From IMG/VR virus record IMGVR_UViG_3300045988_174509: 64,000 nucleotides of DNA; one strand, given 5' to 3'. The notes beneath the pieces are model-generated. The model had not been told where the DNA came from. It worked only from the letters and a program-made list of their open reading frames with translations, and ran no database searches. Position 1 is the stretch's first letter, and every line of letters starts with the position of its first letter. The position numbers and the translations under genes are program-made. This DNA is from a virus. Positions 5,540 to 52,789 of this stretch are shown here, in pieces.

Positions 5540-5962
5540 ATGGCTGATGATGAAAAAATTCTTGAGAACGCCAAGGCCCTCTACGGGCTTTCCGGGCAGG
5601 CGACTGCCTGGGACAAGCTGACCAAGGCCAAGCAAACTCCCTATGTCAACATTGCCCGCGGGCTGGCCGACAATAAGGATGCTATTTTAGCTGATCTTGT
5701 TTCCGACTATGCCGGATGCTTCGGGGCCTCCACCAAGACCCAGAAGATCATTCATACGGTTATCGGGATTATCCTTGGAGCCGCGGGTGCCCTTGGGCTC
5801 ATGGGCACTTCTGGTTGCGGCCACACGGTTGACGTTACGCCAGACCAGACCACTATCTGCAAGGACGGTTCCTGCCTCGTCATTGAGCAGGGCCATGTGT
5901 CCTTCAGGCAGAACGCGCCGGAGAACACCGCGCCTCCCATTATCGTACAAGATAAGAAGTAA
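5540..5962 (+). CDS. Membrane-anchored hypothetical protein
   Basis: Internal hydrophobic helix IIHTVIGIILGAAGALGLMG followed by a Cys-containing segment. Confidence 0.45.
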   Translation: MADDEKILENAKALYGLSGQATAWDKLTKAKQTPYVNIARGLADNKDAILADLVSDYAGCFGASTKTQKIIHTVIGIILGAAGALGLMGTSGCGHTVDVTPDQTTICKDGSCLVIEQGHVSFRQNAPENTAPPIIVQDKK

Positions 5963-14505: not shown

Positions 14506-14553
14506 TTTCCAAGATTTATTTCCATATAATAATTTACTAATACTAAAGCTTTT

Positions 14554-16591: not shown

Positions 16592-16628
16592 GCCTACCAT
16601 GCCTCGGTGTGGTAGGCTTTCTTGTATT
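16592..16628 (+). terminator. Intrinsic terminator
   Basis: Stem gcctacca/tggtaggc plus tttcttgtatt. Confidence 0.5.
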
Positions 16629-16675
16629 CGGAGCGCAACACAGCTCCAACCTGTTTACATACCTCATATTACATT

Positions 16676-19600: not shown

Positions 19601-22600
19601 ATTACCAAGAGCGTAGGAGGTAAGACCTGGGTGCCTGAAAGCATTAAGAAATTCCGGCAGGGGAGCTCCACGATTGCCAGCAAGGTGACGGGGAACACCA
19701 CGCGGGAAAGGCTTTCCAGTTTTGGCGCGCTCTCTACCAAGGAGAAAGTGCTCTACATGGGCAACAAGCTCTACCAGGGCGGGAAGCTGGCCGTGGAAGG
19801 CGCGGCTGAAGAACTGACGGATGAATTTTCCGAATGGCTCTGGACCTCGCTGGTGAAGGATGGCTACATTGCCGAGGACCAGATCGGGACTACTGCCGAG
19901 ATTGCCGCCGCCGCCGTCAAGATTGCCGTGCTTGGTGCCATCGGTGAAGTCACGGCATCCCGGCTTCCGGGAGCCAGGGAATCCGTGCCTCCGGAAATCC
20001 TGGCACAGGCACAGCGGGCGGATGTAGGCATCAAGCCCGAAGAAACCCTGCATGCGCTCAATGCAATCTCCATAGACATGCGGACGGAACTGGAAACCAA
20101 GCAGGGTACGCTGGCCCAGACCATCGCCACTGCGGGGGACAGCGCAGTAGAAGTGCTCAATACCAACCTCTCCGAGCCAGTGAAAGCTGAATACGTGGAG
20201 GGCAACAAAGCCGTAGCCGCCAAGGCCGGGGAGATCGTGGACAACATCAGCAATGCTCCGGTTTATGTCAACGAGCTGGCCGCTGAGGTGGGAGGGGAAG
20301 CCCTGACTCCCGGAGTCCTGGAAGCATGGACTCAAAACAGCATCGTCCTCGGAGCCCAGAACGTAACCCTGCTGAGAAGCTTTGCCCAGAATCTCAAGGA
20401 AGAGATAGCCACGGCGAGCCCGGAAGGGAGGGCCCGGCTGGTAGAGAACGCCCTCTCCAACATCACGGAGCGGATGATCAACCCCACCCCGGAGAAGAAG
20501 GAAATCATGCGAAGCATGGTGGACCAGATTGCGGAGATTTACAACGAGGCTCCGGTAGAGCTTACGCAAGTGGATGACTCTCTTAACTTTATGCCCACTG
20601 GCAATGAGACGGTGGACGTAATTGGGGAAGTAGCCAGCATGGCTGGACCTGCCGCGGTGACTACTGGAGTAGCTACCGAAGCTCCGGCTCCTCCCATTCA
20701 GATTCCCCAGCTTCCCGGAGCTTCTGCCCTGGATACAAATGCCGAGGTAGAAGTATTGGGAACCCGGATGCCTGTGCGAGACATCGCCCCCGTCAAGCCG
20801 GAGCCCCTGGAATCTCCTACGGCTCCGCCTCTTGCCGAGCTGACTGATGCCTCCCTTTCCGGTCCCCTTGATTCCGCCAGCCCGGAAGCCAGGGAGTGGG
20901 CAACCCAGGTAATCACTGGCCTGGAATCCTTCGACCCGGAAACCGCGCAATGGATTACCAAGGGGCGGGAAGCCACGACCTTGACGGATGCCGAGGTTGC
21001 CCGCATGGTGACGCTGAACCAGCTTACCGGGCCTGCGGCCCCCCTTACTGTAGATGATACAGGAAGAACGCTTGTCACAGAACCTAATGCTATCCGGTAT
21101 AACAATCGCGCGCCTGCCGAAATCGCAGGTGAGCTGAACGATTACCAAAGTCAAGTTCTTTCTTTCATGCCGGAGAAATCCGGAGACGGTCTTGCCCTGG
21201 TGGATCGGTTCCTCAGCACCCAGGAAATCACGCCCCAGGAGCGCAGAGTCCTTGAGTCCGTGAGGGAGTATCTGAGAAAAAACAATCTGGGATTCGGGGT
21301 TTCACGGATTCATACCGACATGATTGAAAGCTGGAATGCTCCGGCCCTGGTTGACTTTGCCGACCCGGACTCTCCGCTCATGGTTGTCAACACTTTATTT
21401 GCCCCGGTTGCCGGGGACTTCAAAAACACCTTCATCCATGAGGCCGTGCATTTGGTGGACCAGCACCAGCGGATGACCAACCCTGACTACGGGAACCAGC
21501 TTCGCAGTATGAAGCTGGCTCTCCGGGAAAACTGGAACGAGCTGGTGGGCATCCTGGAAAAGGAAAGCCAACAGGCCCCGGATAATGAGAGCAGGCTGGC
21601 GATAGAAACAGCGATCGAAGACATGGCCTATGGCCTTGACATCAGTGAGGCCCAGGCCGTGGCGAACAACGACAATGAATTCGCCTCCGTGCTTCTGAGC
21701 AACCCGGTGTTCCGCCATCTTGCAAGTCAGATGAAAGAAGGAGGAGAATCAATTACATTTGAAGACCTTTCCTCCCCGGCTACCCTGGCGGCCCTGGCGG
21801 AGTCAGTAACCCCTCCGTCTTCTTTCCTTGGCCGGGTATTTGAAAGCCTGAAGAATGTCTTCAATAAAATCCTTGGCCGCTACAAGAACCTGGAAAAGGA
21901 TAACTTCTCCCTGCTGAAAGACATGGGCGAAGAGTGGACGGCATGGAAGGAGCGGCATTCCGAGGCCGCGCGCAAGCTGGATGAGGCGGCACCCTTGGAT
22001 GGGAGCCGCTGGCTGATACCGGATGATCCCACAGCCATGAAGAACACCGGGTATCAAGATGCCGGATTGATCCTTCGCACGCAGGGCCAGCAAATCCCCA
22101 CTCCTACCGCAGACACAGGAACCGCCTTCTCCCCTACCCGCTACGGATTCATGGGGGAAGTGGGAGGCAACCTGGGTGAGAACTGGTTTAACCTCACCAT
22201 GGCTGGGGCGCGGCAAGCCGCTACATGGTTCAACATGGGCGCGGCCAAGTTCGGCTATCAGAAAGCGATCAACAAGCTGGACTCCCAGCAGGTGCCTGTC
22301 TTTACTGAGCAGGATTCCCTGCGGGTGCGGGAGCAGATGACGGCCCAGGACATGGGCCAGCGTTATGTCATCCAGCAGGTGCACCAGATTGCCAACTGGG
22401 TCAATGCCATGAAGCTCAAGCCTGAAGAGCAGAAGTCCCTGGCTATTGCTATCCGGGACTACGTGGGCAACACGGACAACCTTGCTCGGCCCAAGGAAAT
22501 CCAGCGCATTTATGCGGACACCCAGACCCAGCTTCAGCAGGCCGCCGTGGACCGGGACCGGGCCGTGGCCGCCGCCAAGGAGGGGGTTGTCAGGACCAAG

Positions 22601-25600
22601 GCCGCCTATGAGAAAGAGCTTGCCGCCATTGTGGGGCGCATCCGTGAGAGCACCAGCGAAGGAGTGATCCTTGGCCTGCGCTCTGGGCTGGACACTGCGC
22701 GGAGATTCATCCGCGACAAGTCCATGCCGCCCAAGAACGATGCGCTGGCCCAGATGCAGGCTCTGATGATAGCACGCCAGCAGGAAGTGAACCAGATCAA
22801 CGAGCAGGTCAAGGCATTCAAGGCCGCTTCACCCGAGTTTGCCGATGGAGTGGACTTGCTCCGCCGCGAAGTAATTGCGAACCTTAACGAGGCTCTGGCC
22901 GGGGAGCTTGACCTTGCCGCTCGCCAGATTTCCCGTGACCTTGCCGAGGGGGAAACCTCTCCGGTAGAACTCCTGAAGGAAATCCGCAACAGCCTCGGGC
23001 TCAAGGATATAGGGAAGCTCGGAGACATGGGTTCCGCCATAGAAAAGGCCGTGAAGAATTACCGCAAGCTGGCCCTGGCCTCCGCTCCTGAAGCGGCGAA
23101 TGCTTTGCACAATATAGCACTGGCCCAGGAACGCGCAGGCCGGGAGATCGCCCAGGCGAACGCCGTCTATGAGGGACGCACCCGCCGTGCTGGCTATGAC
23201 AGCAAGGGGATTTACCATCCTGCCGGGACCATCTACCAGAACCGGGACTTCCGCATTGAGCAGGAACAGCGGCACATGCAGGCCGAGTACCTCAAGAGGA
23301 GGGAGCGCGCCAGCGAATTGCTGAACCAGTATCCGGCCATCAAGCAGAGGCTCACCCGCGCCCGCAAGCAGATTGCCCAGAACCAGTATGACATCTACAG
23401 CTTCCTGGGGAGCGAAGCCGGAAGGCTGAGCGCGGCGGACATGAACTGGCTCCATCGCACCTACCTTGCCGTAGGCGCGGGGAATGCTGACGCTTACCGA
23501 AAGGCCATGATGGAAGCCCTGGAAAATCCTCAAGGCAAGAAGGTTTCCGAGTACCAGCTTGCCCGGATTTACAGTGCCACCCGTGCCTACATTGAAGAAA
23601 ATAATTCCAAGGTGAACGGGTATATCAGCACCGTGGTGGACCGGATGAAGAACTATGCCGCCCTGTATGACCGACTCACTGATTCCGGGATTCAGGTTGA
23701 CGGGAAGCCCTCCACCTACTCCGACCTGTTTAAGGGAATCCCCGGCGTGGAATCCTTACAGCAGGGAATCCTGAAATTCCTGAATGAGAATTACAGTGAA
23801 ATGCAAATCTTGTCGGACCTGAAGCACGGGGACAACATGGTGGAAATCGTGGACAAAGCCCTGGCGGTATCCCGGTATCTGGGAGACCAGCATCCCGGGG
23901 AAAGAAAGAAGCTGAGGGACCAGCTCAACCAGATCAAAAGGCATCAGGCCGACTACGCCAGGGACGCCTTCCTGCTGGAGAGCATGGGGGTAGAAGAGCA
24001 TGACCTCCGGGGGTTTATCACCAGTGCCGAAGACACAGCGGAGCTTGCCGCCCGGCTGGAACAAACCGGATGGGTGGATTCCCGGACGGTCAAGACAATC
24101 ATGGATGCTCCCGAGGCTACCATGAGCCAGCGGGTGACAGCGTTGATAGACTACCTTCGCGCCAAGGCGGACCTTCAGATGCAACGCCTGGGTCTTGGCT
24201 ATACCATTGACCCTGAAAAGCTTACGTCGATGAACCGGACAAGCCTCCGAAAAGGGATGGTAGAACTGGCAAACCAAGCCTTCGCCTCCACCCTCAGCAA
24301 GAAGAGGAGCACGGAGAACCCGCTGGCCCTTCGGAAAAACCTGCCGCTCTCCGAGCGCATCATCCTGGGTGAGCTGGGTGATGCCAGCGTGTCGGAAGCT
24401 ACCGGATTGATTGAAGCATCCCTGTCCTACCAGAAGGATACGCTGGTCAACACCGTCATGAGCGATGAAGCGGCCAACACCTTCCTGAAGCTGGGACTGG
24501 TGACGGCCCGGCCCAAAGGTGATGAGGATGTCCTTCTCTCCTTCAAGAATTCCCACAGCAAGCTCAATGGGACGTATGCCAGCCATGAACTGGCGGACTC
24601 CCTTTACCGAATCTTCAGGCCTACAGATGACGTGATGGCAAACGAAAGCACATGGCCCGGCATCAAGAAATACTGGAGCACCAACTCGGTGGGCACGATC
24701 CAGAAGCTGGGAGGCATGGCGAACATCGCCGTGCTGATCAAGTCCCCGGCTTCCACGCTTCGCAACCTCTATGGTACAGCGATGCAGGGGATCAACTCCG
24801 GCATTTGGTTCCCGGCTTATGGGCTCAAAGAGGTAAGCGGGATGGCCGTTGATCTGGTCCGCATGTGGAAACTGGAAAGGGCGGCCAAGGATAATACGCT
24901 GGCCGGAAGGGAAGCCCAGGAAAAACTCCTGGAAGCTGAAGAACGGTGGTCAAAAAAAATCAAGCACTACTATGACCTTGGCTTGCTGGACAATGATACC
25001 ATGCAGGTGTTCCGCAATCTCTGGAAGAGTGAAGAATTCCAAAAGGCCATAGAAGGAAAGATTGATCTGACCCTGGATGAATCCGATGGGCTTACAGACA
25101 TTGTGGTAGGGGACCGGAAAGAAAGGACGCTGGCAAACCGGACGTTCCGGTTCCTCACTACAGGGATCATGAAGGGGGCGACCGTGGCCTACAGCATCCC
25201 GGATGCCATGGCAAAGATTGCCAACTACACCCATGAGGTACGCAACAGCAGGAACCTGATGGCCGTGCAACTTGAGCGCGCCAAGCTGACGGAAGAAAGC
25301 AAGCGCACCCCATGGCAGAAGGAGCTGGTAGAAGCCAGCGCGGACGAGAATAAATGGAACGCACTGGTGGAACACACCGCGGCGGACCGGACGAAGAACC
25401 TGTTCCCTACGGGGACGCGCACTCCGAAATGGGTGAAGACCGTGGGGCTTGTCGCCCTTCCCTTCTTCATGTTCCAGTATCACACCGCCAACTCGGTGGC
25501 CTACAACCTGGGCTACATGGTGCAGGAATTGCAGGAAGGAACCTGGGCTCTCCGAAATGGGATGACCAAGGAGGGGAGCAAGCTGATGGCCAAGGCTTTG

Positions 25601-26845
25601 AGCCGGGCGGCGGGGACTGCCGCCGCCGTGGTAGCCCAGGAAGAAATCCTCCGCTTCCTCTTCCAGTTCATGGCCCAGGGTGCCCTCAAGCTTCTGGATA
25701 AGGACGATCAGGTCCAGCTGATTACCAACGCAGAAGTCATGAAGACCGCATCCAGGCTCGGACTGATCCCGGACTACGACAAGTTCGGCACCAACCTGGG
25801 GTTCTTCAACAAGGGCACGGGGCGGTGGAGCTACATGAACCTGGAGTATGCCGCTCCGTTTAAGAACGTAGCCTCCCTGGTCAGCAGTGCCTGGAAGATG
25901 GCAACGGCGGAAGATGAAGGAAAGAAAGAAGGCTGGGATGAAATGGAGAACCTGATGGAGAGCACCATAGGGAGCCCCTCCATGCTCCTGTCTCTGATGA
26001 ACACCTACCTATTCGACCCGAACGACAAGTTCAACTACAAGGCCGCGCCGGAAAAATCAGGGAACATCAGCCTTGCGGATGCCGTGGGGAATGCCGCCCT
26101 GATTTCCTTCGGGTTCCAGCCAAGCCTGGGACATGGCTACACCTACAAGCCCCTGGAGCGGATCGCTACGGCGATCAACAAGGAGACTCCCGTCTGGTCT
26201 GCGGTTTCTTCCATCCTCCACCAGAGCTTTGAGGATGATCCCAACAACGTGTGGTATGAAACAGCCCTGAAGCATGCGGGGTTTGGCATGCGCCATGGCA
26301 AGTCCTTTGTGGATGCCGCCGCCAACGGGGTGAAGACCGCCAAGGTTTCCGACAACCACGCCAAGCGGCTCCGTGTTCTCAGTGAAAGGTATCTGGATAT
26401 TCCTATTGACACCCTGAAAGAGTTCACTACCTTTGACATAGCCCAGAGGAAGGAAGCCTATGCAGACCTGGGGAGTACGCTTAACGGGATCAAGGCCCTG
26501 ACTGAAACACTGTACGGAACCACCGCCGGGCGCACTGCCTTCCGGGATATTCTTGACCGGAGCAATGTCAGCCTGAAGACTGCGCGCTGGGCCATGCGCG
26601 GAGTCATGCCGGAGGTGATCACCAAGGACGCAGTAGTGAGTGCCTTTGAACGGCTGGACCGTGAAGCCCGGAAGCCGGGAACCAGTGAAGCCCGGAAGCC
26701 GGGAACCAGTGAAGCCCGGAAGCAGAGAATCCAGGAGCAGAAGAAACTCATCCGCCGGGTTTACCGGGAACGGGGAGTCAAGGTAACAGACCAGATGGAA
26801 TCTGCAAGTACGTATAAAACGTTATTTAAAAATCTGGAGCAATAA
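16676..26845 (+). CDS. Giant (~3,390 aa) Ala-rich coiled-coil protein with an internal HExxH motif; candidate virion-packaged/ejected or tape-measure-like protein
   Basis: Single uninterrupted ORF. N-terminal EAR(A/Q)E(R/K) repeats, a central FIHEAVHLVDQH motif and C-terminal EARKPGTS x2.6 repeats. The ATG at 16676 is preferred over the track's TTG at 16622, which lies inside the upstream terminator. Confidence 0.6.
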   Translation: MAIDFSTLGPIQPGLDARQESQARARTNFAQRQEDRGRTKAVEPLKAMADFDSLLAKELGSLEKTQKTEARQEKTEARAERSEARAERSAERAETSFEQGQKKWDWALNDRAREEANRDLAKITKSSTSGINAQSIEELEDWVKTPETELYDLKTASSDENALGIIASRLGVEKIEGALPTPTTSEDVETPPYFLSRQGLALRPDGSYIVTNKFIDSVARSKADSSKLASAVSKQLNAGVKASNRDGLSSTPITATATEEEIKEMIDTIRSGDKKVHAAVKAIYDKHIPEDKKTQASEAQTETETPEAQEGKTPVGEPGSGGSSADETPGNFTSTVLDEAEWLATNPAKFTELTQQYLNSLVEQGMNAPEVQRAELAGQRAVARENYIRGVETLLERTFQDVDPKEAGEALRNEARVAEKVLDMYGGAPAEALAQIERRTEELAKAHPGNESLRNQDKAKAIYEYLDSVIPGFNASGAEADALQQIVEENIVGATKTPSLNDAATAAMRHYRSSLGQVSDMTGTVMEGATRFNIPGLRYENKSDDEATRNPLEKMTWEPGKGGWKFGFKRSNGSMEDSFSISYEGLRSYMAEHKLNQQDALNSIAFPTTLGDVAYAKDGLLFARNPYTGEVEENATLAMNPTALYDNSLYQKSLEGLRSSGMSDEEIAAVDKKYQDAKARSAAETVQGLLQTYSEMQSMAELTGSETLGKILEPDSSVDFRIFHARMKRDRMSDTFILEQWNDKEEQWDRQVQRVIQGTQRKAVDMGVTAGLAIAQQLNGVLGPRDSAATLSNQWKIVNESREAATRVTQSNLFTEWGTELAFLAVQMAGTGAAGIAGRTAGEALATQGIRRVAAGMALRSQAAATVARPGIAQSAEVAFSRTMEGIVHGATRSWGATAGTQAAIFSQVAPYAYGDIFSTQLDRAIKHAETLPQDQRGAYLSDAQNLANLRATAGAVIVGMASMAINSRAGMNTFITKSVGGKTWVPESIKKFRQGSSTIASKVTGNTTRERLSSFGALSTKEKVLYMGNKLYQGGKLAVEGAAEELTDEFSEWLWTSLVKDGYIAEDQIGTTAEIAAAAVKIAVLGAIGEVTASRLPGARESVPPEILAQAQRADVGIKPEETLHALNAISIDMRTELETKQGTLAQTIATAGDSAVEVLNTNLSEPVKAEYVEGNKAVAAKAGEIVDNISNAPVYVNELAAEVGGEALTPGVLEAWTQNSIVLGAQNVTLLRSFAQNLKEEIATASPEGRARLVENALSNITERMINPTPEKKEIMRSMVDQIAEIYNEAPVELTQVDDSLNFMPTGNETVDVIGEVASMAGPAAVTTGVATEAPAPPIQIPQLPGASALDTNAEVEVLGTRMPVRDIAPVKPEPLESPTAPPLAELTDASLSGPLDSASPEAREWATQVITGLESFDPETAQWITKGREATTLTDAEVARMVTLNQLTGPAAPLTVDDTGRTLVTEPNAIRYNNRAPAEIAGELNDYQSQVLSFMPEKSGDGLALVDRFLSTQEITPQERRVLESVREYLRKNNLGFGVSRIHTDMIESWNAPALVDFADPDSPLMVVNTLFAPVAGDFKNTFIHEAVHLVDQHQRMTNPDYGNQLRSMKLALRENWNELVGILEKESQQAPDNESRLAIETAIEDMAYGLDISEAQAVANNDNEFASVLLSNPVFRHLASQMKEGGESITFEDLSSPATLAALAESVTPPSSFLGRVFESLKNVFNKILGRYKNLEKDNFSLLKDMGEEWTAWKERHSEAARKLDEAAPLDGSRWLIPDDPTAMKNTGYQDAGLILRTQGQQIPTPTADTGTAFSPTRYGFMGEVGGNLGENWFNLTMAGARQAATWFNMGAAKFGYQKAINKLDSQQVPVFTEQDSLRVREQMTAQDMGQRYVIQQVHQIANWVNAMKLKPEEQKSLAIAIRDYVGNTDNLARPKEIQRIYADTQTQLQQAAVDRDRAVAAAKEGVVRTKAAYEKELAAIVGRIRESTSEGVILGLRSGLDTARRFIRDKSMPPKNDALAQMQALMIARQQEVNQINEQVKAFKAASPEFADGVDLLRREVIANLNEALAGELDLAARQISRDLAEGETSPVELLKEIRNSLGLKDIGKLGDMGSAIEKAVKNYRKLALASAPEAANALHNIALAQERAGREIAQANAVYEGRTRRAGYDSKGIYHPAGTIYQNRDFRIEQEQRHMQAEYLKRRERASELLNQYPAIKQRLTRARKQIAQNQYDIYSFLGSEAGRLSAADMNWLHRTYLAVGAGNADAYRKAMMEALENPQGKKVSEYQLARIYSATRAYIEENNSKVNGYISTVVDRMKNYAALYDRLTDSGIQVDGKPSTYSDLFKGIPGVESLQQGILKFLNENYSEMQILSDLKHGDNMVEIVDKALAVSRYLGDQHPGERKKLRDQLNQIKRHQADYARDAFLLESMGVEEHDLRGFITSAEDTAELAARLEQTGWVDSRTVKTIMDAPEATMSQRVTALIDYLRAKADLQMQRLGLGYTIDPEKLTSMNRTSLRKGMVELANQAFASTLSKKRSTENPLALRKNLPLSERIILGELGDASVSEATGLIEASLSYQKDTLVNTVMSDEAANTFLKLGLVTARPKGDEDVLLSFKNSHSKLNGTYASHELADSLYRIFRPTDDVMANESTWPGIKKYWSTNSVGTIQKLGGMANIAVLIKSPASTLRNLYGTAMQGINSGIWFPAYGLKEVSGMAVDLVRMWKLERAAKDNTLAGREAQEKLLEAEERWSKKIKHYYDLGLLDNDTMQVFRNLWKSEEFQKAIEGKIDLTLDESDGLTDIVVGDRKERTLANRTFRFLTTGIMKGATVAYSIPDAMAKIANYTHEVRNSRNLMAVQLERAKLTEESKRTPWQKELVEASADENKWNALVEHTAADRTKNLFPTGTRTPKWVKTVGLVALPFFMFQYHTANSVAYNLGYMVQELQEGTWALRNGMTKEGSKLMAKALSRAAGTAAAVVAQEEILRFLFQFMAQGALKLLDKDDQVQLITNAEVMKTASRLGLIPDYDKFGTNLGFFNKGTGRWSYMNLEYAAPFKNVASLVSSAWKMATAEDEGKKEGWDEMENLMESTIGSPSMLLSLMNTYLFDPNDKFNYKAAPEKSGNISLADAVGNAALISFGFQPSLGHGYTYKPLERIATAINKETPVWSAVSSILHQSFEDDPNNVWYETALKHAGFGMRHGKSFVDAAANGVKTAKVSDNHAKRLRVLSERYLDIPIDTLKEFTTFDIAQRKEAYADLGSTLNGIKALTETLYGTTAGRTAFRDILDRSNVSLKTARWAMRGVMPEVITKDAVVSAFERLDREARKPGTSEARKPGTSEARKQRIQEQKKLIRRVYRERGVKVTDQMESASTYKTLFKNLEQ

Positions 26846-35984: not shown

Positions 35985-37280
35985 TCAAGATTGTTTCTTT
36001 GTAGACCGCCCCCTTGTATCAAACGCCGGGATATTTAATTTTCTCCTTGCTTTTCCGATAACTTGTATTGATTTGCCTGTTTTATTAGCGACTTCTTTAT
36101 CAGTCATTGTGCCCAGCAGGGATTTAATGTATTCGTCCCCTTCTATTGTTTCTTGCAAGCTTTTTTCCTCACGTAATGCCGGAACATTCAATTTCTGTCT
36201 AATTCTTCTTACTGCCTCGTCATCAATATTAAATTTTTCGGCTATTACTCTATCATAAACTTTCCCAAGCATAGATAAGAGTTTTTTACGTTGGTCCGGT
36301 GAAAATCTTTCTAAAATGCTTTTACTGAAAGGCTTAATTTTGTTCTGTTCTCTAAATTTTTTAATTACATATACGCTGTACCCTGTTTTTTTTGCAATTT
36401 TTAAATCTGATACTCTTCCCAATAAATTAAGAATTATATCCTTGTCCGCATCCTTAATGGGAGCTGGAGCAATTTTTAATTTTCTACGGTTCCGCGCTAC
36501 AACATTAAGCGATATTCCAAGCCTTTCAGCAATTTCGCTATCAGGAATTTTCCCAAGCATGGATAGCATTTCTTCGCGTTTCTCTTCGGGGATTTTAGTA
36601 TCAGATAATGATAGAATGCCCATCTTTTTTCTAATAAGCGCAATTCCTGCCTTGGAATAACCGAATTTTTTAGCAATTTCATCATCCGGGGTCTTTCCAA
36701 GCATGTTAATTAACTCTTCGGGATACTCTTTTTTCTTGTGTGGTTTATTTGGGTCTCGTGGCTGACGGGGTTTACGCGGCCCCCTATATGACTTAATCCC
36801 TAATTTCTTTCTAAGGTAGGCTACTCTGGAATTTGAGTATCCAAACTTCTTGGCACACTCCGAGTCAGGAATTTTTCCGAGCACTGCAATAAGCTCTTCA
36901 TCGTGTTGGATGCGGATTGCTTCAGGGCTGCAATACTTTTTGATACCTAATTTATAGCGTTCAGTCTGGACCGTGACGCGCGCTATTCCGAGTAGCTCGG
37001 CGATTTCCAGGTCAGGTTTTTTGCCCAACATGGACCGCATTTCTTCACGCTGTTCGTGAGAAAGAATGCGGTGAAACCTCTTTTCTCGGTATTTTTCATG
37101 CAATAACTCCATGAGCAATTGCATGTATTCAGGCGTGGGATGTGGTTTTTTAGTATTTAGCCACTTCCAAACAGCATCTTCCGTCACCCGCATCATCTGC
37201 GCGGCCCTTTTTACAGCTTGGGTAGGACTTGGGAGATTGTTGGCCGTTTGAAGCCAGTCGATAAATTCTTGTGCGGTCAT
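35985..37280 (-). CDS. Protein with ~85-aa N-terminal domain plus seven tandem ~46-aa sigma-region-4-like HTH repeats
   Basis: Seven copies of the pattern LG(K/R)xPDxEIAxKxGxSxxxVxxxRxKLxI: ELLGIARVTVQTERYKLGI, KKFGYSNSRVAYLRKKLGI, KKFGYSKAGIALIRKKMGI, ERLGISLNVVARNRRKLKI, KKTGYSVYVIKKFREQNKI, EKFNIDDEAVRRIRQKLNV, NKTGKSIQVIGKARRKLNI. Confidence 0.6.
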   Translation of the reverse strand: MTAQEFIDWLQTANNLPSPTQAVKRAAQMMRVTEDAVWKWLNTKKPHPTPEYMQLLMELLHEKYREKRFHRILSHEQREEMRSMLGKKPDLEIAELLGIARVTVQTERYKLGIKKYCSPEAIRIQHDEELIAVLGKIPDSECAKKFGYSNSRVAYLRKKLGIKSYRGPRKPRQPRDPNKPHKKKEYPEELINMLGKTPDDEIAKKFGYSKAGIALIRKKMGILSLSDTKIPEEKREEMLSMLGKIPDSEIAERLGISLNVVARNRRKLKIAPAPIKDADKDIILNLLGRVSDLKIAKKTGYSVYVIKKFREQNKIKPFSKSILERFSPDQRKKLLSMLGKVYDRVIAEKFNIDDEAVRRIRQKLNVPALREEKSLQETIEGDEYIKSLLGTMTDKEVANKTGKSIQVIGKARRKLNIPAFDTRGRSTKKQS

Positions 37281-37321
37281 GGTGAGAAAGGAGGGGCGGC
37301 AATGCCGCCCCTGGGGGTTAT

Positions 37322-37648
37322 TTAGTGAGCTTCAACGCGGGAAGCGTCCTGCGTCCAGTTGAGGTTTTCTCCTTCAATTTCTTCGCCCGTCATTTGTTCA
37401 AAGACCATGTAGATTTCAACCTTGTTCCCTTCTGCATCATAGCCGGGAGCAGACCATTCTTCCATATAACTGCCGTCTTCGTATTTGTCCGCATAGGAGC
37501 CAGGGAAAACCCTGTTGGTGTATTCCATCTGGCGCGCTGCATAGTAGGTCTTGCCTTCGAACTTGTAGCTGCCAAATTCACGTTCAAGAGCGGTCAGGTT
37601 GATTTCTTCTCCGTCTTCCGTGGTGATGATTTTGTTATCGTTCATCAT
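37322..37648 (-). CDS. Small highly acidic, Tyr-rich protein (108 aa, net charge about -15); candidate DNA-mimic/anti-restriction early protein
   Basis: 24 D/E against 9 K/R. It is the first gene downstream of the strong leftward promoter and has an AAAGGAA Shine-Dalgarno sequence. Confidence 0.45.
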   Translation of the reverse strand: MMNDNKIITTEDGEEINLTALEREFGSYKFEGKTYYAARQMEYTNRVFPGSYADKYEDGSYMEEWSAPGYDAEGNKVEIYMVFEQMTGEEIEGENLNWTQDASRVEAH

Positions 37649-37782
37649 TTTTGTAATTCCTTTCTTTCAGGTTTTATTCTTGGCAGGGCGTTGCGCCCTT
37701 GCATGATTTTTTGATAGCATTACGGAGGGTTCCGTTCAACCGATTTTTTGCAGGGAGCCGGCAAGTGATTTAAAATGAAAGG

Positions 37783-37810
37783 ATTATAATTGTGTCATAC
37801 AAGGTGTAAA
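37783..37810 (-). promoter_or_regulatory. Strong sigma70-type leftward promoter
   Basis: On the - strand: -35 TTTACA, a 16-nt spacer, then a perfect -10 TATAAT. It lies ~125 nt upstream of the acidic-protein gene. Confidence 0.55.
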
Positions 37811-38570
37811 AAAGTGTGAAAAGGTGCTTGCAATGTAAAAATCCGGCATTTGCGGCACAAAAATCCAGCGTCAAAATCAGGCATGGGGGAGTATCGTAAA
37901 AAGTACAATAAGCCATGAAGCCGGGAAACCCGGGTTCCGGGTTCCGGGTTTGGAGGATTAGGCAATAATTGAGGCAGGTGCAAAAGCAGGAATGATTCAT
38001 AAAATTTTATGGCTGGTGTCCCATATTTGAGCCGGATTCCATAAAATTTTATGGAACTTTGGACAGTTTCAGGGTGTCAGGTATAAAATTTTGTAAAAGC
38101 AGGGAGAGGCGGGTGCAGGGCGTCAGGGTAACTTAGAATCAGGGAGTCAGGGGATCAGTTTGGAGGATTAGGCAAGAATTTGAGAAGAAAGGAAGGCCCT
38201 TCTTTTCTTCTCATATCATCAACGTATCATGATATGTTGATATGTTATGATTCACAAGCAAGCCCGCAATTTATACAGGCGTATAAATATGCACCCCTGA
38301 ACCCCTGATTCCGCCCTTCCCTGCACCCCGCTTCACACGTCAAAAAATACAATAACCCCCCTATTTCCGGCTATGGAAAAATTCAAACGTAACATAATGG
38401 ATTGAATCTTAACGTCTAGCACGTTCATACTTCGCATAATATGTGTAATGCAAAATCGGAAGCACGATTCAGGCATAACAAGAAAATACATAAGAAGTTA
38501 TGAAGGAAATTACCCTGAAATTGGAAGCCGATTTCCGCCATACGGGAGGTTTACAGGGCCAGGGGTTCAA

Positions 38571-38613
38571 GGTTAGAGTGGCTCAAAGGTTCAGGGTTCG
38601 AGCAACTCTAACC
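38571..38613. other. Imperfect hairpin
   Basis: Stems ggttagagtggctc / gagcaactctaacc with one mismatch and a 15-nt loop. Confidence 0.4.
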
Positions 38614-38625
38614 CGGAATCAGGAA

Positions 38626-39100
38626 ACATACCACCACGGTTGAGGGGGCTCACGGGTTCAGCGAGTGGAGGTATAAATCTTTGGGTCGGGAATGCCCTGG
38701 AGGAACCATTTTTGGAGAAAGGGGGATGTATGGACCTAGAAGGCGGGTTTACCCCCAGTTGGGTACTCTGTACCGGACCTACCCCAAAACACAGTTTTAG
38801 GCGACCACCCTACATGAAAAAACCGTATTCTGGCATGAGCATGGTTCCCAGGCATGCGTAAAGGGCGGATACCACCACGGGGGAAGGGGTGGAACTTGGG
38901 AACCGGAAAGGGCGGGATCAGGGGTTCAGGGGGTCGGAAAAAATCGGTGAAAACGGAAAAATGGGAGGTATGGACCTAGAAGGCGGGTTTACCCTCTTTC
39001 CGCTACAGAGTACTGGACCGACCCCAAAACGCAGTTTTAGGCGACCACCCTACATGAAAAAACCGTATTCTGGCATGAGCATGGTTCCCAGGCATCCTCG
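38626..39100. repeat. Two tandem ~240-bp degenerate direct repeats
   Basis: Both copies start ATACCACCACGG. They share ggtatggacctagaaggcgggtttaccc and a 75-bp core (ccccaaaac[a/g]cagttttaggcgaccaccctacatgaaaaaaccgtattctggcatgagcatggttcccaggcat) identical except one base. Confidence 0.8.
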
Positions 39101-39298
39101 CGTGCGCATGCGCGTAGGCATGGGCATGGGCTGGCAGGGGTCGGCATACATGTCGGAAGAAAGGTCGGAAAAAGGGTCGGCATGAGCGGGGCTCGCCTAC
39201 GCATACGCGTACGTACGCGCACATGGCCCGCGTCACCCGCGCATGTGTGGGCATGTGCAGGCGTATGCGCTCGCCCGCCTCAGCGCGCCCAGGAAACT
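39100..39298. repeat. GC-rich GCATG-laden imperfect inverted-repeat block containing 4x GTCGG at exact 12-bp phasing
   Basis: cgcgtgcgcatgcgcgtaggcatgggcatgg at 39100-39130 is inverted relative to cgcctacgcatacgcgtacgtacgcgcacatgg at 39193-39225. GTCGG occurs at 39140, 39152, 39164 and 39176. Confidence 0.6.
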
Positions 39299-39400
39299 TT
39301 TATAATTCAATATTATAATAAAACCCATATATATATATATAGTATTTTTTAACTTTTTTATTTTTAGGGTTCTTGTATTGATTTTTAACGAGTTATGAAG
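39299..39400. other. AT-rich block with a (TA)7-8 run; candidate DNA-unwinding element
   Basis: Contains ttttataattcaatattataataaaacccatatatatatatatagtattttttaactttttta. Confidence 0.45.
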
Positions 39401-39495
39401 ACGGATTTTGTGAAGTGAAAAGTCAGAGCCCCTTTTCACATGCCTTGACAAAAATGGAAATATGTATGAATTTGGTCTTTTTTATACTTTAGAAA

Positions 39496-39510
39496 TTAGA
39501 ATGATTCTAA
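39496..39510. promoter_or_regulatory. 15-bp palindrome TTAGAATgATTCTAA (inverted pair of the TTAGAAT half-site)
   Basis: Arms ttagaat/attctaa are perfectly complementary. Confidence 0.5.
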
Positions 39511-39532
39511 AAACTTTTACATACTTTTTTTA

Positions 39533-39735
39533 TCGACATTTTTACGACATTTTTACGACGTTTTTTTGACCCCATTTTTGACCCCATTTTTGACCCCATT
39601 TTTGACCCCATTTTTGACCCCATTTTTGACCCCATTTTTGACCCCATTTTTGACCCCATTTTTGACCCCCTGAATCCGTGATTCCGCCCTCCCGTTCCAC
39701 CTCCATTTTTGACCCCCTGAATCCGTGATTCCGGA
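39533..39735. repeat. Iteron array: 3 x cgacattttta (11 bp), 9 x gaccccattttt (12 bp) and 2 x ccctgaatccgtgattccg (25-bp-class direct repeat)
   Basis: Direct reading. gacccc occurs at 39568, 39580, 39592, 39604, 39616, 39628, 39640, 39652 and 39664, with a tenth copy at 39711. Confidence 0.85.
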
Positions 39736-39779
39736 TACCTCCGGACCCCCGTCACCGGAAACCCCTTTTTATTTTTCTC

Positions 39780-39807
39780 TTGACAGGATTTCCGTCCGGA
39801 TTATCCT
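39780..39807 (+). promoter_or_regulatory. sigma70-type promoter for the primase gene
   Basis: -35 TTGACA at 39780-39785, a 16-nt spacer, then -10 TATCCT. The ~15-nt leader has no Shine-Dalgarno sequence. Confidence 0.45.
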
Positions 39808-39828
39808 GGCTCCACATTAATACATCCC

Positions 39829-42800
39829 ATGACACCCCTATATATCGACGACATTCATATCTCTATTGCCGCCCCATCCGCCCCGCAGTGGCTCACTGCC
39901 ATGGACGTAAACAAAAGGTTCTACCATGTCGGTCATTGCAATAATGCCTTTAATGCGGGGCTGAAGGCTATTGCCCTTGGCTGGATGAAATTTGAGGACG
40001 CAGAAGGCTTTCCGCTCACTCCCGATTTGCGCAGATGCGGCTATATGTGCGACGCCTATGCAATGGACAAGGGCGTGAAACTTCCCGCCCTCCTGCCTGA
40101 TGCCTATATAGATAGTATTTCCAAATGGCGGGAAATCTCCCCCGAGGCGGGCATCCCCAAATCCGTGCTCCCAGCCTTCGTGCCGTCAGTCTCCTTCAAT
40201 TACAAGTTCATTCGCAAATGGCAGAAGGACAACCAGGATGACCGGAAGAAGTACCTGAGCGCGAAAGCCTTGGCCGGACGCGATCCCCGGGCGTGGAGCC
40301 ATACGGGCCTGTTCTGCATTGACATTGACGCCGGGCACGACGGAAACCCTGAAGCCCCTGACGCCCTGTACGCCCAGGCCCATGCCAATGGCGCCTTCTC
40401 CCTGATGCCCGGATTCCTTTTTTCCTTTGCATCCCCGAATCAGGGAATCAAGCTGATGTTTAAAGTGGACCCGGTTCTGCTCGCGCTTCTCAATACCCCG
40501 GAAGGATGCGGAGATGCGGACCTGGAATCCCCGGAAGTATCGGGGGAAGCCCTCGCCCGGGTGCAGTCTTTGCGCGAGAAGAACCACGCCATATGCTTTT
40601 ACGCTATCGCCGCGATGGTTTCCCGCCATACCGGGCTTGCCGTGGATTTATCCTGCTCCGATCCCTGCCGCCTCCAGTTCATGTTCCGGGCCCATGCCTC
40701 CCGGTATGAGCTCAATCCCTGTCTCCTTGATTCCGAAGTCCCGGATTCCCTGCTTCCTGGGTTCAGCATCGACGGAGCCGATGCATGGAGGGAGTATGAG
40801 GAGACAGCCGCCCGCCGCGGAGCCGGAGGCTCCGCTGTGCAACCCCGGAATTTTGAGCCCGGAAAAGACAATAAGCCCGACAGTATTTTGAGGTTTGCCG
40901 ACTGGCTCAAATCCAGGGGGTGGCTGAAGGAAGCCCAGCACGTTTTGGACATGACTCCCGGACCCCGGGGCTATTATTCGTTCTGCCTCCAGTGCCGGGA
41001 TGTAAGCAGTACGCCTTCCGGACCTCGTGACTTGCTCCTGTGGCTTGACAGGGATTCCCCCGGGAGGTTCGGCTTCAAGTGCCTGCATGAATCCTGCCAG
41101 AGCCGGGCCAAGGTCAAGTACCCGTTCTGGTATCTGGCAAAGCTCTACCATGAGGAGCAGGAGGCGTTGAAGATTGCCCATGAGGCATCCAATTCCTATC
41201 AGGTGCCTGAGCCCATCCGCAAGTTCATCCGCACCAGAAGCGAGCTCTCCGAGCACAAGATCATCATTGGGAACATCGGGATGGTCCAGTCCTCCTTCAA
41301 GACTCCCGATGCCCTGCCGAACCTGTTCGAGTGGGATGAGAAGACCGGAGCCCTGCTTACTACGGCCCTGAATGTGTCGGGCTATGTGCGCCACTGCATG
41401 GGATTGTATCCCGTATATAACAAGGACCTGTGCTGTAACGAGTTCATTTCTCCGGATACGGGCATGTGCTTCCCGTTTGACGCGGTGCGCAAGGCCGTCC
41501 TCGGCTACTTCATGACCCGGTGCAACAAGGACGTGTCCAAGCAGTTTCTTTTTACCTCCCTGCATGAGGCCCAGGGCCTTTCCTATTCGCCGCTGTTTGC
41601 GCTGGGGTACTGGGAGGAGTGGGACGGAGTTCCCCGGGTGGACCAGTATATCGACCTGCTGGAGTGGGACCCGGCCCACCAGCCGCCTAAAATCTTAAAG
41701 GAGGATGGCACGCCCATGTCGGGGCAGGAGTGGAAGCGGCATGCCCTGCGCTCCTGGCTGGTGAATTGCTGGGAGCGCACCGTCTGCTCGGTGATCGGCT
41801 CGGACAAGGTGCCGACCTTCGGTGGCCGCCCCTCGCACCTGATGCCGGAAAACAAGATGATCATCCTCTGCTCGGAGACCCAGGGGGTGGGCAAGACCCA
41901 GTGGGTGAAGGGGCTGGTGGGGAGCAAGGCCCAGGAGTCGCTGGTCATTGCCGATAAGCTGGAGCAGAGCAAGGACCATGACAAGATTTCGGCCATCAAG
42001 CCGATCTTTTTCCTTGACGAGATGGAGAAGACTACGAAGAACGAGGAGATGAACTCGCATCTCAAGATGGTGCTGACCCGGAGCCACATTGACATTCGTG
42101 ATCCCTATGAGAAGGACATCATGCACAGGAAGGTGGTGACTTCCTTCATCGGGGCGACCAACGAGCCAAAGCCTTTGAGTGATGCCGATGGAAGCCGCAG
42201 GCTTGTGTTGCTTTATGTGAGGAGGCCCGCCGATAAGATGGGCAGTGTAGGCAATTGCCCCGAGCATGTGAAGGAGATGCAGTCGCTCAATGTCGCCCAG
42301 TTCTGGGCCGAGATCAAGTACCTGTCCGAAACGGCCAAGCCCGGGGAGTATGCGCTGACGCCCCAGGAGACCAATCTTGTGCATTACAACCAGACCACGG
42401 CTTTGGAGAACGGGGAGTTCAACCACCTCGTATCCTACCTCCGCTTCATTCCCTCAAACTACCCGGCGGCGGACGGGAAACAGCTCCGCAAGATGATCAA
42501 CGGGGCGTACAACGATCCGGCCAATATCATCAATTCGGTCCGCAGGTATCTCGGGGAGCGGGAGATCAAGGTCTCCTGGCGCGGGAGCAAGCAGTTCCGC
42601 CAGCATCTTCTGGCCCAGGTGCCCGAGGGGTGCTCTCCCACCTACTATACAGGCAAGCGCGGGTCTCCCCGTGTCGCCCTGTACCCGGTTATGCTTGAAT
42701 CCGAGTTCGAGCTTCTGGCCTCCGATACAGCCAGGAAATCCTGGGCTCGGGACAACCCGGAGGAGGCGGCGAAGTATTACAAGCGGATCAAGTTCGGCCT

Positions 42801-50393: not shown

Positions 50394-50951
50394 ATGAAAA
50401 AACTGCCTGCGACTGTGATACTTGGTGTGGACCCTGGTGTGAGTGGAGGACTCGCTCTGGCGGACACAAAAAAAAAGGTGGTGTATTATACCAATATGCC
50501 TAAGAAGATGGAGAACTTCGGGTACTTTTGCAATGCGTTGTGCACCATAAAGAACCGGAAGATGTTCATTGAGCACATGAGCTATGCTCAGGGGGGACGG
50601 AAAGATGAGTCCGGGAAGTTCATCCGCATCAGCAATCCCAGGTCCATGGGTATTCTTGGTCAGAATGCCGGGTATTTGATGGGAAGTGCGGAAGCGATGG
50701 GGTACAAGATTGAAGAAGTCTGGCCCCAGCAATGGATGGGAAGGATGGGAGTCCATGACACCGGGTTGTCTTGTAACGATAAAGGCTGGAAGAACAACCT
50801 CAAGCGGCTGGCTTCCGAAGCTTTCCCGAAAGCCAAAGTCACATTGAAGACGGCGGATGCCCTCCTCATTCTTCTGGATGCCTACCGCCGTCTTACGGAG
50901 GACCCGGAAGCCTCGCTGGCTGACTGGGATATGTACCAGATCAAGTTCTAA
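50394..50951 (+). CDS. RuvC-like Holliday junction resolvase
   Basis: VILGVDPGVSGGLALAD fits the RuvC motif I (ilGiDPG). The ATG at 50394 follows a promoter and leader hairpin; the track's GTG start lies inside the promoter. Confidence 0.65.
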   Translation: MKKLPATVILGVDPGVSGGLALADTKKKVVYYTNMPKKMENFGYFCNALCTIKNRKMFIEHMSYAQGGRKDESGKFIRISNPRSMGILGQNAGYLMGSAEAMGYKIEEVWPQQWMGRMGVHDTGLSCNDKGWKNNLKRLASEAFPKAKVTLKTADALLILLDAYRRLTEDPEASLADWDMYQIKF

Positions 50952-52789
50952 TGGCTGTTTCTCGACAGTTTATACGCTATGGCCGGAAGTGGCCGATGGA
51001 TGCCTCAGAGATCGACATCGAACTCTGGTGCTTCAAGTATGCGTGGCCTAAGGAAAAGGGGGGCCTTGGCCGCTATGGTCATGCAGTCAAATGTATTGAT
51101 CTCCTTTGGAATTATAAGGGCAGTCCCTCCCCGGTAATTTGGACTCCCTGGGTGGAGTATGGCCTGAGGCATGCCTGTGAGAACAATGTCTGCATCATGG
51201 GCGGCGGTTCTTCCTGCGGGAAGTCCATGATCATGGCCTTGATGGCCCTTCTTTTCTATTTGTCTGACCCCAGGCATACCATGTGCCTTATCACTTCGAC
51301 CACGATTGAAGGTGCCAAGAAGCGTATCTTCAAGGATGTCAAGAGATTTTGGCGTTCATATTTTCCTGGGAAGCTGGTGGATGGCCAGGGTAAGATCAAG
51401 GGTATCAATGAGGAGGATGAGATTGATGATTCCCAGGGCATTGTCATTATTCCCTGCGCCAATGTAGGAGACCCTACAAGCCGATTCATCGGGATCAAGG
51501 CCCCCAACATGCACGTTTTCTATGATGAGCTTTCCGAGCTTCCCATTGAGCTTGTTGATGTTTGGAGGACCAACCTGAACACGAACGCTATTGATACTCC
51601 TCCGACACTCATGGCGGCTTCCAACCCCAAGAGCCGGACTGATGCGTTCGGTATTATGGCGATGCCCAAGGACGGTTGGAATAGCGTGGACATTTTCACC
51701 GAGGAGACCTGGAGGACCCAGGATGGGATTTATATCCGGTTTGACAATACCAAGAATCCTCGTATTGCTTTAAACCGGGAAGACTGGTCCTTCTACGTCA
51801 GCCGACCCATTATTGAAGAAGCCATTCGTCAGTATGGGGCAGACTCCGCTTTCATCCAGCGATTCCATAAAGCCACGTTTTCTGACGACATCGAAGAGGG
51901 AGCCCTGCTTTCTGAAGCCGAAATTTATGCGGCAGGGGCGGACGGCATGCCCGTATTTGGCCCCAAGCCCATCATTAAGATTGCGAGTCTTGACCCGGCC
52001 TATACCAATGGCGGGGACCAGTCTGTCGTCCGTTGCGCCAAGGTGGGCTATGATCTGAATGACAATCTGTGCATGTTCGTTTATGCACGCTTTGCTCTCA
52101 AGTCCACCAAGAACAAGGAGGATTTAAAATCACGCAACTTCGATATTGCCAAGCAGGTTTATGATATTCTTCAGCAGGAAGAGATTTCTCCGGACAACTT
52201 TGTTGTGGATATTACTGGCGGCGCGGCGTTTGCCGACATTCTGGCCTCGTATCTAGGCCCAAAATTTGAGGCGATCAGTTTTTCCGGGAACGCCAGTAGC
52301 ACGCCCATTTCAGCCTCTACTCCTGAACTGGCTTGCAAGATGTATGCCAACAAGGTCTCCGAGCTCTGGGGCGTGATGAAGCTGGCGATTGCTTCCCAGC
52401 AGTTGTATGGCCTGGATTCCAAGGACATCCTGGAAATGAAGTCCAGGCTTTACACCTCGGAAAACGGAAAGATCAAGGTAGAGCCAAAGAGATTGATGAA
52501 GAAGAGAATTCGTCATTCTCCCGACGATGCTGACGCTATCGCTCTTCTGGTGCATATGGTGAGAAAGAAGTTCGGCATGGCTTTTGCCAGGATGCCGGAC
52601 AAGGCCCCTACGGCCCAGAATAGGCCCAGATATAAATTTGAGCTTGACAGCAAAGGGAACCCCATTCTACACTCCCGGGATATTAAGGCTTACCTGCATG
52701 ATCCCGATCAGGCGGCCAAACAGCCGCCGCCTGAGGTTCGTACTTTTCAACGTCAGGTACAGAAGCTGGGGTCGTTGCTCTGGAAGTAA
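50951..52789 (+). CDS. terL: Terminase large subunit
   Basis: Walker A GGGSSCGKS and Walker B VFYDELSE. C-terminal nuclease motif IASLDPAYTNGGDQSVV. Confidence 0.8.
   Translation: MAVSRQFIRYGRKWPMDASEIDIELWCFKYAWPKEKGGLGRYGHAVKCIDLLWNYKGSPSPVIWTPWVEYGLRHACENNVCIMGGGSSCGKSMIMALMALLFYLSDPRHTMCLITSTTIEGAKKRIFKDVKRFWRSYFPGKLVDGQGKIKGINEEDEIDDSQGIVIIPCANVGDPTSRFIGIKAPNMHVFYDELSELPIELVDVWRTNLNTNAIDTPPTLMAASNPKSRTDAFGIMAMPKDGWNSVDIFTEETWRTQDGIYIRFDNTKNPRIALNREDWSFYVSRPIIEEAIRQYGADSAFIQRFHKATFSDDIEEGALLSEAEIYAAGADGMPVFGPKPIIKIASLDPAYTNGGDQSVVRCAKVGYDLNDNLCMFVYARFALKSTKNKEDLKSRNFDIAKQVYDILQQEEISPDNFVVDITGGAAFADILASYLGPKFEAISFSGNASSTPISASTPELACKMYANKVSELWGVMKLAIASQQLYGLDSKDILEMKSRLYTSENGKIKVEPKRLMKKRIRHSPDDADAIALLVHMVRKKFGMAFARMPDKAPTAQNRPRYKFELDSKGNPILHSRDIKAYLHDPDQAAKQPPPEVRTFQRQVQKLGSLLWK

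Follow-up and report, generated by a model that had tools for sequence, protein, structure and literature searches.

The 64,000-nucleotide stretch of viral DNA analysed here (IMG/VR record IMGVR_UViG_3300045988_174509; the whole stretch is called the window below) carries two tandem repeats of about 240 bp at positions 38628-39100, each of which contains a 138-nt core. With belief and doubt about evenly balanced, we interpret this core, from comparison of sequences, as a tandemly duplicated orphan micro-gene that has been homogenised by gene conversion within the origin/control region of a phage. According to this interpretation, the 138-bp core would be a very small protein-coding gene present as a tandem pair (open reading frame (ORF) A of 43 amino acids (aa) and ORF B of 71 aa), a variable zone of ~30 nt would form the unconstrained middle of the peptide, and the diverged 5′ parts of the repeats are older non-coding units bearing octamer motifs. 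Both ORFs would be translated from a rightward transcript directed toward the primase-helicase operon, and the basic C-terminal half of the peptide may bind nucleic acid or a host factor early in infection. The repeats and their parts are as follows:

38628-38866, plus strand: copy A of the repeat
38628-38717, plus strand: 5′ part of copy A ("unit 1"), which starts with ATACCACCACGG and aligns with positions 4934-5076 of the distant relative L021 and with the distant relative L024
38718-38855, plus strand: core A, 138 nt, family D2 (profile match, E = 1.5e-48)
38730-38861, plus strand: predicted micro-ORF A, ATG to TAA, 43 aa (MDLEGGFTPSWVLCTGPTPKHSFRRPPYMKKPYSGMSMVPRHA)
38755-38784: variable zone A (alpha), with the quasi-palindrome GTTGGGTAC-TCT-GTACCGGAC at 38758-38778
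38869-39100, plus strand: copy B of the repeat
38869-38957, plus strand: 5′ part of copy B ("unit 2"), with weak homology to positions 5067-5170 of L021 and the composite motif I1-I3
38958-39095, plus strand: core B, 138 nt, family D2 (profile match)
38970-39185, plus strand: predicted micro-ORF B, ATG to TGA, 71 aa, with the beta middle and a poorly conserved 28-aa tail (variants P0002-P0019)
38995-39024: variable zone B (beta), with TTCCGCTAC-AGA-GTACTGGAC at 38998-39018 (inverted pair I17; -1.4 kcal/mol)

An earlier sequence-only reading of this DNA had described two tandem ~240-bp repeats, and these proved real by their coordinates, by column comparison, and in independent contigs. Both copies open with ATACCACCACGG, at 38628 in copy A and at 38869 in copy B. 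Their 5′ ~90 nt are merely ~55% alike, with two tandem GRWTCAGG octamers at 38915-38930 inside the copy B part, and their cores are 89% identical at a spacing of exactly 240. Compared by column, the cores consist of 27 identical bases (GTATGGACCTAGAAGGCGGGTTTACCC), a zone of ~30 nt with 11-12 mismatches and zero indels (38755-38784 vs 38995-39024), and a 71-nt 3′ block that is identical between the copies save one A/G (38791 vs 39031). The 28-mer that had been called shared starts with "gg" only in copy B, copy A having "tg" there. Among the small hairpins that had been proposed, AAAAC-NNN-GTTTT holds up, with a stem that is unchanged in 11 units and a loop in which two of the three positions vary, but CATGAGCATG, with its 2-nt loop, is implausible and varies freely. 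A profile search with the core across 258 kb of the window and the recovered loci detected two copies per genome and no other match.

The phage is uncultured, and its relatives derive from human-gut metagenomes. No DNA match to GenBank phages was obtained, and the protein matches to deposited phages were weak; since the PolA protein is <30% identical to that of any deposited phage, no annotated relative is available. A primase scan of the genome collection revealed no prophage relative. The locus was recovered by pattern and protein searches, in a dozen short contigs and in the following long ones:

L001: IMG/VR, 66.8 kb, two copies
L016: ENA, 60.6 kb, sequence the same as L001, two copies
L017: 39.5 kb, two copies
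L025: 70.5 kb, two copies, with the region internal to the contig

Exact-pattern scans of IMG/VR with three core patterns matched L001 only, and a scan with a 17-mer of the upstream hairpin returned 23 loci, the 22 new ones of which were all unrelated. Contigs L004-L013, which have a different upstream region, were uninformative for the repeat. All five long sequences (the window, L001, L016, L017, and L025) carry two copies with the same distinct flanks. Because four independent long contigs share this arrangement with the window, the repeat is not an assembly artefact, one of the circumstances that the sequence-only reading had named as refuting its proposal. One-copy forms (at least seven) all occur in contigs of ≤5.1 kb; since every long sequence has two copies, we took these forms as probable assembly collapses and left them out as evidence of copy-number variation. 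Conservation across relatives, which had been suggested as a check, thus extends to two copies in the window and four long contigs, and the core is missing from the more distant L021-L024. The supposedly perfect 75-bp core was confirmed in the window as 71 bases with one A/G difference; it is not invariant, since the two L001 cores differ from each other at four positions within it.

As a neutral yardstick, we took the primase gene, whose four-fold degenerate sites have diverged by 13% between the window and the L001 lineage. Because only 10 of 216 positions (4.6%; P = 3e-5) in the conserved core blocks differ between the same lineages, these blocks are evidently under purifying selection. The right half of the region, with the variable zones excluded, differs at 33 of 895 positions (3.7%), and the left half, which is recombinant, diverges by 30%. 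Variable zone A differs from L001 at 9 of its 30 positions and variable zone B at 4 of 30; the variable zone thus evolves freely or above the neutral rate.

The conserved 3′ block also displays a coding signature. Of the six frames, only frame 0 of the plus strand stays open throughout the 14 distinct units; each of the others has 1-3 stops. Across these units, the 71-nt 3′ block has ten variable columns, of which seven are synonymous third-position changes (CGC>CGA, AGG>AGA, CCA>CCG, CCG>CCA, GGC>GGA, AGC>AGT, and GTT>GTC) and three alter the amino acid. By chance, a share of 0.21-0.24 should be synonymous (binomial P = 0.0014-0.0025); a permutation that kept each mutation type gave P = 0.004 for the excess. 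The synonymous counts in frames 1 and 2 were 0/10 and 2/10. As controls, the synonymous:nonsynonymous counts were 10:23 in a 47-aa ORF upstream, where the changes are even over codon positions, 1:4 in the unit-1 part of ORF A (frame 0), 2:9 in the ORF B tail, and 0:12 in the ORF at 39182-39352; pooled, these flanking-ORF controls gave 13:48 (Fisher P = 0.004 vs the 3′ block). The variable zone, with 5 synonymous and 16 nonsynonymous changes, behaves neutrally. Between the window and L001, the 3′ block has 3 synonymous and 4 nonsynonymous differences. By a hand estimate, the cores of these lineages differ by ~12% per synonymous site and 3.4% per nonsynonymous site, and the primase gene matches these rates (13% at four-fold sites; 3.4% at first and second codon positions).

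These results indicate that the 3′ block evolves like translated sequence under purifying selection. On the strength of this signature, we predict micro-ORFs that begin at the ATG codons at 38730 and 38970. The ATG, which is preceded by AAAGGGGGA, is unchanged in all units, no unit contains an indel, and the 240 period is divisible by three. The predicted peptide comprises an invariant, acidic MDLEGGFT, a 10-residue middle, and a conserved, basic, proline-rich PKRSFRRPPYMKKPYSGMSMVPRH; ORF A stops two residues past PKRSFRRPPYMKKPYSGMSMVPRH, and ORF B runs on for 28 poorly conserved residues. The earlier view that the ORFs called across the repeats merely translate the repeat is contradicted by the synonymous third-position changes.

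Several observations weigh against a coding function. The coding test comprises ten substitutions, one of them a singleton from a single contig. The stop codons are unstable: TAA of ORF A is TAC in L001 and L016, which fuses the ORFs into 147 aa (P0009), and TGA of ORF B is lost in L020 (P0002). The first 25 nt of the ORF never vary, even synonymously, which hints at an additional constraint at the nucleotide level. No homologue beyond the clade was detected, either among 5.8 billion clustered proteins or among 1.84 billion representatives, the micro-ORF peptides had no Pfam, PHROG, or PDB match, and the core is missing from relatives with a 62-64% identical primase. Finally, no promoter was found near the cores, the start context is unlike the A/T-rich one of most genes in this phage, and the peptide is of low complexity.

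The two cores within a genome do not evolve independently. In L025 they are identical and have three private substitutions in common (columns 63, 75, and 123). The middle segments of the two slots are alpha and alpha in L017, beta and beta in L025, and alpha then beta in the window and L001. Column 121 separates two lineages, one with A and the other with G, in each case in both copies. Because of the private changes of L025, the alpha form in both slots of L017, and column 121, we infer that the cores evolve in concert and that their likeness within a genome reflects gene conversion, not selection alone. The selection on the core that had been suggested from its divergence-then-identity pattern is borne out by the comparison with the neutral yardstick. 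A recent neutral tandem duplication without function, whose apparent conservation would stem from recombination or from hitch-hiking with the adjacent origin, could accommodate a lineage-specific core, single-copy forms in short contigs, and a mosaic region. We consider it quite unlikely, as the two copies are present in all five long sequences from lineages ~5% apart, the alpha/beta split is older than those lineages, the conserved blocks directly adjoin a freely diverging 30-nt zone, which excludes simple recent ancestry, and the synonymous excess would be left unexplained.

Next to the conserved blocks, every variant of the variable zone holds a quasi-palindrome whose 3-nt loop occupies a fixed position, the stem top TAC/GTA being invariant and the lower stem variable. 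The loops among the variants are TCT, TCG, CCA, and AGA. TCT, the loop of the alpha form, is the exact reverse complement of AGA, the loop of the beta form, which explains the inverted match I17, and the comparison indicates that the alpha and beta forms differ by a hairpin inversion. In the alpha series, the 5′ arm reads TTGGG, TCTGG, or TCCGG, and the TCCGG form is a perfect 9-bp palindrome. Since the free energy of the hairpin as DNA ranges from 0 to -9.3 kcal/mol among the variants (0 to -2.1 for the beta forms) and its pairing shows no covariation beyond column shuffles, the hairpin is not maintained by selection; the zone is best described as a mutable stretch, a decaying quasi-palindrome and not a conserved signal.

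These findings bear on the proposal of the sequence-only reading that the repeats are a duplicated small RNA (sRNA) gene, or, in a wider form, that they are domains of a long replication-control or primer RNA whose variable hairpin determines specificity. The variable zone can indeed pair in most variants (85% of cells vs 36-51% in slid controls), with wobble pairs that are mainly G-U on the plus strand; the AAAAC-NNN-GTTTT stem is invariant around a variable loop, and folding of the 741-nt region is somewhat more stable than that of shuffled sequences (z = -2.3 and -3.2). For the cores themselves, however, neither strand folds more stably than its shuffled versions (z = +0.7 to -0.45), and no Rfam match was obtained (whole window at gathering scores; region at E ≤ 10). 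The covariation analysis that had been suggested for RNA structure yielded nothing above column shuffles, as did the RNAalifold model, in which half of the Watson-Crick pair changes break the pair, as chance predicts. In addition to the wide range of hairpin stability, neither core is flanked by a promoter or terminator (the promoter patterns scanned being of the sigma-70 type only), and, apart from the other copy, nothing in the rest of the window offers the variable segment a complementary target. An RNA function of the cores is therefore unlikely.

Alternatively, the quasi-palindrome could be a strand-specific hairpin signal, acting in single-stranded or cruciform DNA like the early promoters of phage N4 or the ssiA/ssiB priming sites of RSF1010, and the alpha/beta inversion would then shift the signal to the opposite strand. 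The 3-nt loops, the invariant TAC/GTA top above a variable lower stem, and the exact TCT/AGA loop inversion fit such a signal, and the phage encodes a 3407-aa protein, near the N4 virion polymerase in size, and an AEP-like (archaeo-eukaryotic primase-like) motif (FCIDID, read by eye) in the neighbouring gene. However, the 3407-aa protein matches nothing in Pfam, PHROG, or the PDB sequences and has neither a T7-like motif B nor a DxDxD motif, and the genes of the phage bear sigma-70-like TTGAC-N16-TAnnnT promoters. Moreover, the beta-form hairpins are barely stable, the loops are not of the GNA type, the flanks are direct and not inverted repeats, and alpha+alpha and beta+beta genomes exist. 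We regard this explanation as highly improbable. The 3407-aa ORF itself (16622-26845) has a GC content above its surroundings and a HEAVH (zincin-like) motif near residue 1606.

The repeats sit in a 2.2-kb stretch (37650-39829) without convincing genes, between divergent operons. To its left lies a leftward block that includes a 431-aa protein with multiple helix-turn-helix (HTH) motifs, of the T5 D5-like regulator family, and to its right a replication block made up of a VapE-type primase-helicase (39829), PolA, a helicase, and an exonuclease. The features of this setting are as follows:

38566-38618: hairpin directly 5′ of copy A (pair I6; z = -4.8)
39290-39669: candidate origin proper, an AT-rich stretch followed by repeat arrays, in a layout recognisable in L021 and L024
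39829-42915, plus strand: 1028-aa primase-helicase gene (VapE-like/DUF5906; Pfam E = 4e-18)
50951-52789: large terminase gene (TerL), 12 kb from the repeats, with the replication module between

Rightward from copy B follow a GC-rich inverted repeat, the AT-rich stretch, 3.5 copies of TTTTTACGACA, and nine copies of TTTTTGACCCCA. The AT-rich stretch (39290-39526) differs at 3 of 237 positions between lineages with 13% neutral divergence; it is probably a DNA-unwinding element and possibly also holds promoters. The exact TTTTTGACCCCA copies, which come after those of TTTTTACGACA in 39527-39669, directly upstream of the primase-helicase gene, are probably initiator-binding iterons of the origin, judging from their arrangement. 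L025 has just five of them, and four public contigs terminate within this array. The window has 32 GRWTCAGG octamers, where 12.9 would be expected, and 10 of the 32 fall within the 1.7 kb at 38064-39733, in both orientations and often in phase. Taken together, the region looks like a replication origin plus control region. A sigma-70-like pattern, TTGAC-N16-TAnnnT, recurs after a T-rich run 30-45 nt upstream of start codons and precedes the genes at 5540, 7716, 39829, 43958, 49582, 53455, and 31885 (minus strand).

Distant relatives clarify how the repeat was put together. L021, L022, and L024, whose primases are 62-64% identical to that of the window, keep the left part of the region as far as window position 38708, together with the hairpin at 38566-38618, both ACCACCACGG units (85 nt apart), and the AT-rich-plus-iteron layout. 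The hairpin is kept there with a G-C to A-T swap, for example in L021. Profile and alignment searches found no core in L021-L024. Because the distant relatives have the 5′ units but no core, the "240-bp repeat" is evidently a mosaic of old, diverged 5′ units and a copied, lineage-specific 138-nt core; the copy A 5′ part (38628-38717) in particular is old, shared with distant relatives, and devoid of a coding signature. A 17-nt resemblance of the core to L021 and L024, spotted by eye, was not significant in either orientation. L021 also carries an IS605 OrfB/TnpB (Cas12f-like) gene at 13837-15033, directly after the helicase gene, where the window has the exonuclease gene.

The main alternative to the micro-gene, which we consider possible though on the unlikely side, is that the cores are cis-acting origin/control DNA, with the two conserved blocks as protein-binding sites held at a fixed distance by a spacer that is free to vary. 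The cores would then have been duplicated like the crr repeats of phage P4 and would serve to concentrate an initiator or regulator locally, close to the origin. This possibility is consistent with the position of the cores, 200-600 bp from the AT-rich stretch and the 12-bp iterons and beside the primase-helicase gene in a gene-poor region, with constraint on the entire right half of the region (33/895 vs 13% neutral), with the octamer enrichment (10/32 of those in the window), with the constant spacer length, with a 5′ block that is unchanged even at would-be synonymous sites, and with a gross layout that is the same as in P4 crr. Conversely, the conserved cores contain neither octamers nor 12-bp iterons, DNA binding predicts no period-three synonymous pattern (P = 0.004), and relatives with the same origin architecture have no core. 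The earlier suggestion of auxiliary origin elements agrees with the location of the repeats in an apparent origin/control region. A micro-gene and cis-acting DNA roles are mutually compatible.

Packaging has also been proposed, with the repeats as a pac site bound by the small terminase subunit. Several public contigs do end ~470 bp rightward, within the 12-bp iteron array; however, a perfect tandem array of 108 bp is a place where short-read assemblies are expected to break, the region lies in the interior of the L025 contig, and the large terminase gene is 12 kb off, with the replication module between. A pac site is scarcely credible here. Three further candidates were rejected. A diversity-generating retroelement (template repeat/variable repeat) does not fit, as the 11-12 differences involve all four bases in both copies and not the adenines of one. 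The proteins scanned, from a subset of the ORFs, included no reverse transcriptase. In a virus-borne mini-CRISPR, the 27-nt 5′ block and the start of the 3′ block would be repeats, and they share merely AGGCG and ACCC. A sigma-54-like TGGCAT-N5-TGGTT in the core lacks the GC at -12.

Other features of the window were noted alongside. A second strong hairpin/palindrome lies at 38181-38213 (z = -3.8), and in its place L001 has a palindrome of different sequence and equal free energy. The GC-rich inverted repeat (39096-39289), in which purine and pyrimidine runs alternate (CGCATACGCGTACGTACGCGCACATG ...), is prone to adopt Z-DNA or cruciform structure; within it are GGCATG hexamer repeats and a 12-mer, GTCGGAARAAGG, that is present in different numbers of copies among relatives. 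A composite motif of ~30 nt, GGGARGGGCGGRATCAGGGGTTCAGGGG, occurs four times (38294-38328, minus; 38898-38932, plus; 39659-39690, minus; 39706-39733, minus), and the TTGAC of the promoters resembles TTTTTGACC of the iterons. Few genes of the phage have Shine-Dalgarno sequences, and no tRNA or tmRNA was found in the window. The 431-aa protein (35985-37648, minus strand) has ~8 HTH repeats and matches the PHROG "transcriptional regulator, D5-like". L004-L013, contigs from a different type of phage whose portal is Mu-like, carry its gene and the adjoining 108-aa gene at 98% identity, and the homology ends exactly at the start codon of the 108-aa gene; the pair therefore has the appearance of a mobile mosaic module. 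At the start of the window, an 18-bp unit, ATGCCAAGGTGTACGGGA, is repeated 26 times in tandem over positions 1-466, where higher-order periods of 54 and 108 are also seen; the array lies in an ORF that runs off the window start and presumably encodes a hexapeptide-repeat structural protein.

How the micro-ORFs might act is a matter for speculation, and we think it very unlikely that they work through the act of translation (not through a free peptide), with origin firing coupled to it, or through a basic, proline-rich peptide whose exchangeable variants target a host machine. In the former case, the RRPPY...KKPY segment would pause ribosomes, by analogy with RAPP-type arrest peptides and polyproline stalls; the pause would link translation either to read-through of transcription or to the formation of R-loops in the G-rich stretch before the origin, and host translational capacity would thereby tune origin firing. 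In the latter case, the free middle and two gene-converting copies would supply rapidly exchangeable peptide variants. If the coding interpretation holds, a "non-coding repeat" in a phage origin region is a pair of micro-genes. In that case, a synonymous/nonsynonymous count on a dozen metagenomic haplotypes would also have told a coding from a non-coding reading, and such counts should help to annotate gene-free regions, of which uncultured gut phages have many.

The locus belongs among known kinds of things and opens no new class of system; it is a compact natural example of concerted evolution of tandem paralogues combined with quasi-palindrome inversion within a reading frame. It resembles the tandem ORFans of phages in being a short, lineage-restricted ORF without a homologue, part of whose peptide is under purifying selection, and tandem ORFan paralogues in that the two copies evolve in concert. 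Unlike phage ORFans, the micro-ORFs lie in a 2.2-kb, otherwise gene-free origin/control region and not in an early-gene cluster, their stop codons are unstable, and the middle of the peptide coincides with a loop-flipping quasi-palindrome.

The P4 crr offers a second comparison, although its repeats are not known to have a coding signature. According to the annotation of NC_001609, it has two 120-bp direct repeats by the alpha primase-helicase gene; here, likewise, direct repeats of 100-250 bp lie beside a primase-helicase gene, in a region rich in 8-bp motifs in both orientations, and in P4 too an annotated hypothetical ORF overlaps the first repeat. The P4 repeats, however, contain five octamer iterons each, the same iterons as at ori, whereas the cores here have no iteron: the octamers are confined to the diverged copy B 5′ part and elsewhere in the region, and the cores have neither GRWTCAGG nor TTTTTGACCCCA. 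The primase-helicases of P4 and the window have no detectable similarity (BLASTP E = 0.22).

In phage N4, the early promoters P1-P3 of the virion RNA polymerase have a 5-7 bp stem that is conserved only in part and a 3-nt loop (PMC4496689). The present repeats are similar in that the sequence surrounding a small hairpin with a 3-nt loop is conserved and recurs in one orientation, and the phage likewise has a ~3400-aa protein. They differ in that no polymerase is recognisable, neither the stability nor the loop sequence of the hairpin is conserved, and sigma-70-like promoters precede the genes.

Finally, inversion of hairpin loops by template switching is known from chloroplast non-coding DNA and from quasi-palindrome mutation hotspots in bacteria. 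As in those cases, a 3-nt loop has been swapped for its exact reverse complement (TCT/AGA) with the stems staying similar, and clustered multi-base changes raise or lower the perfection of the palindrome (TTGGG, TCTGG, TCCGG). Unlike the known examples, the inversion here lies within what is probably a coding sequence, and the two orientations both segregate at a pair of paralogous slots.

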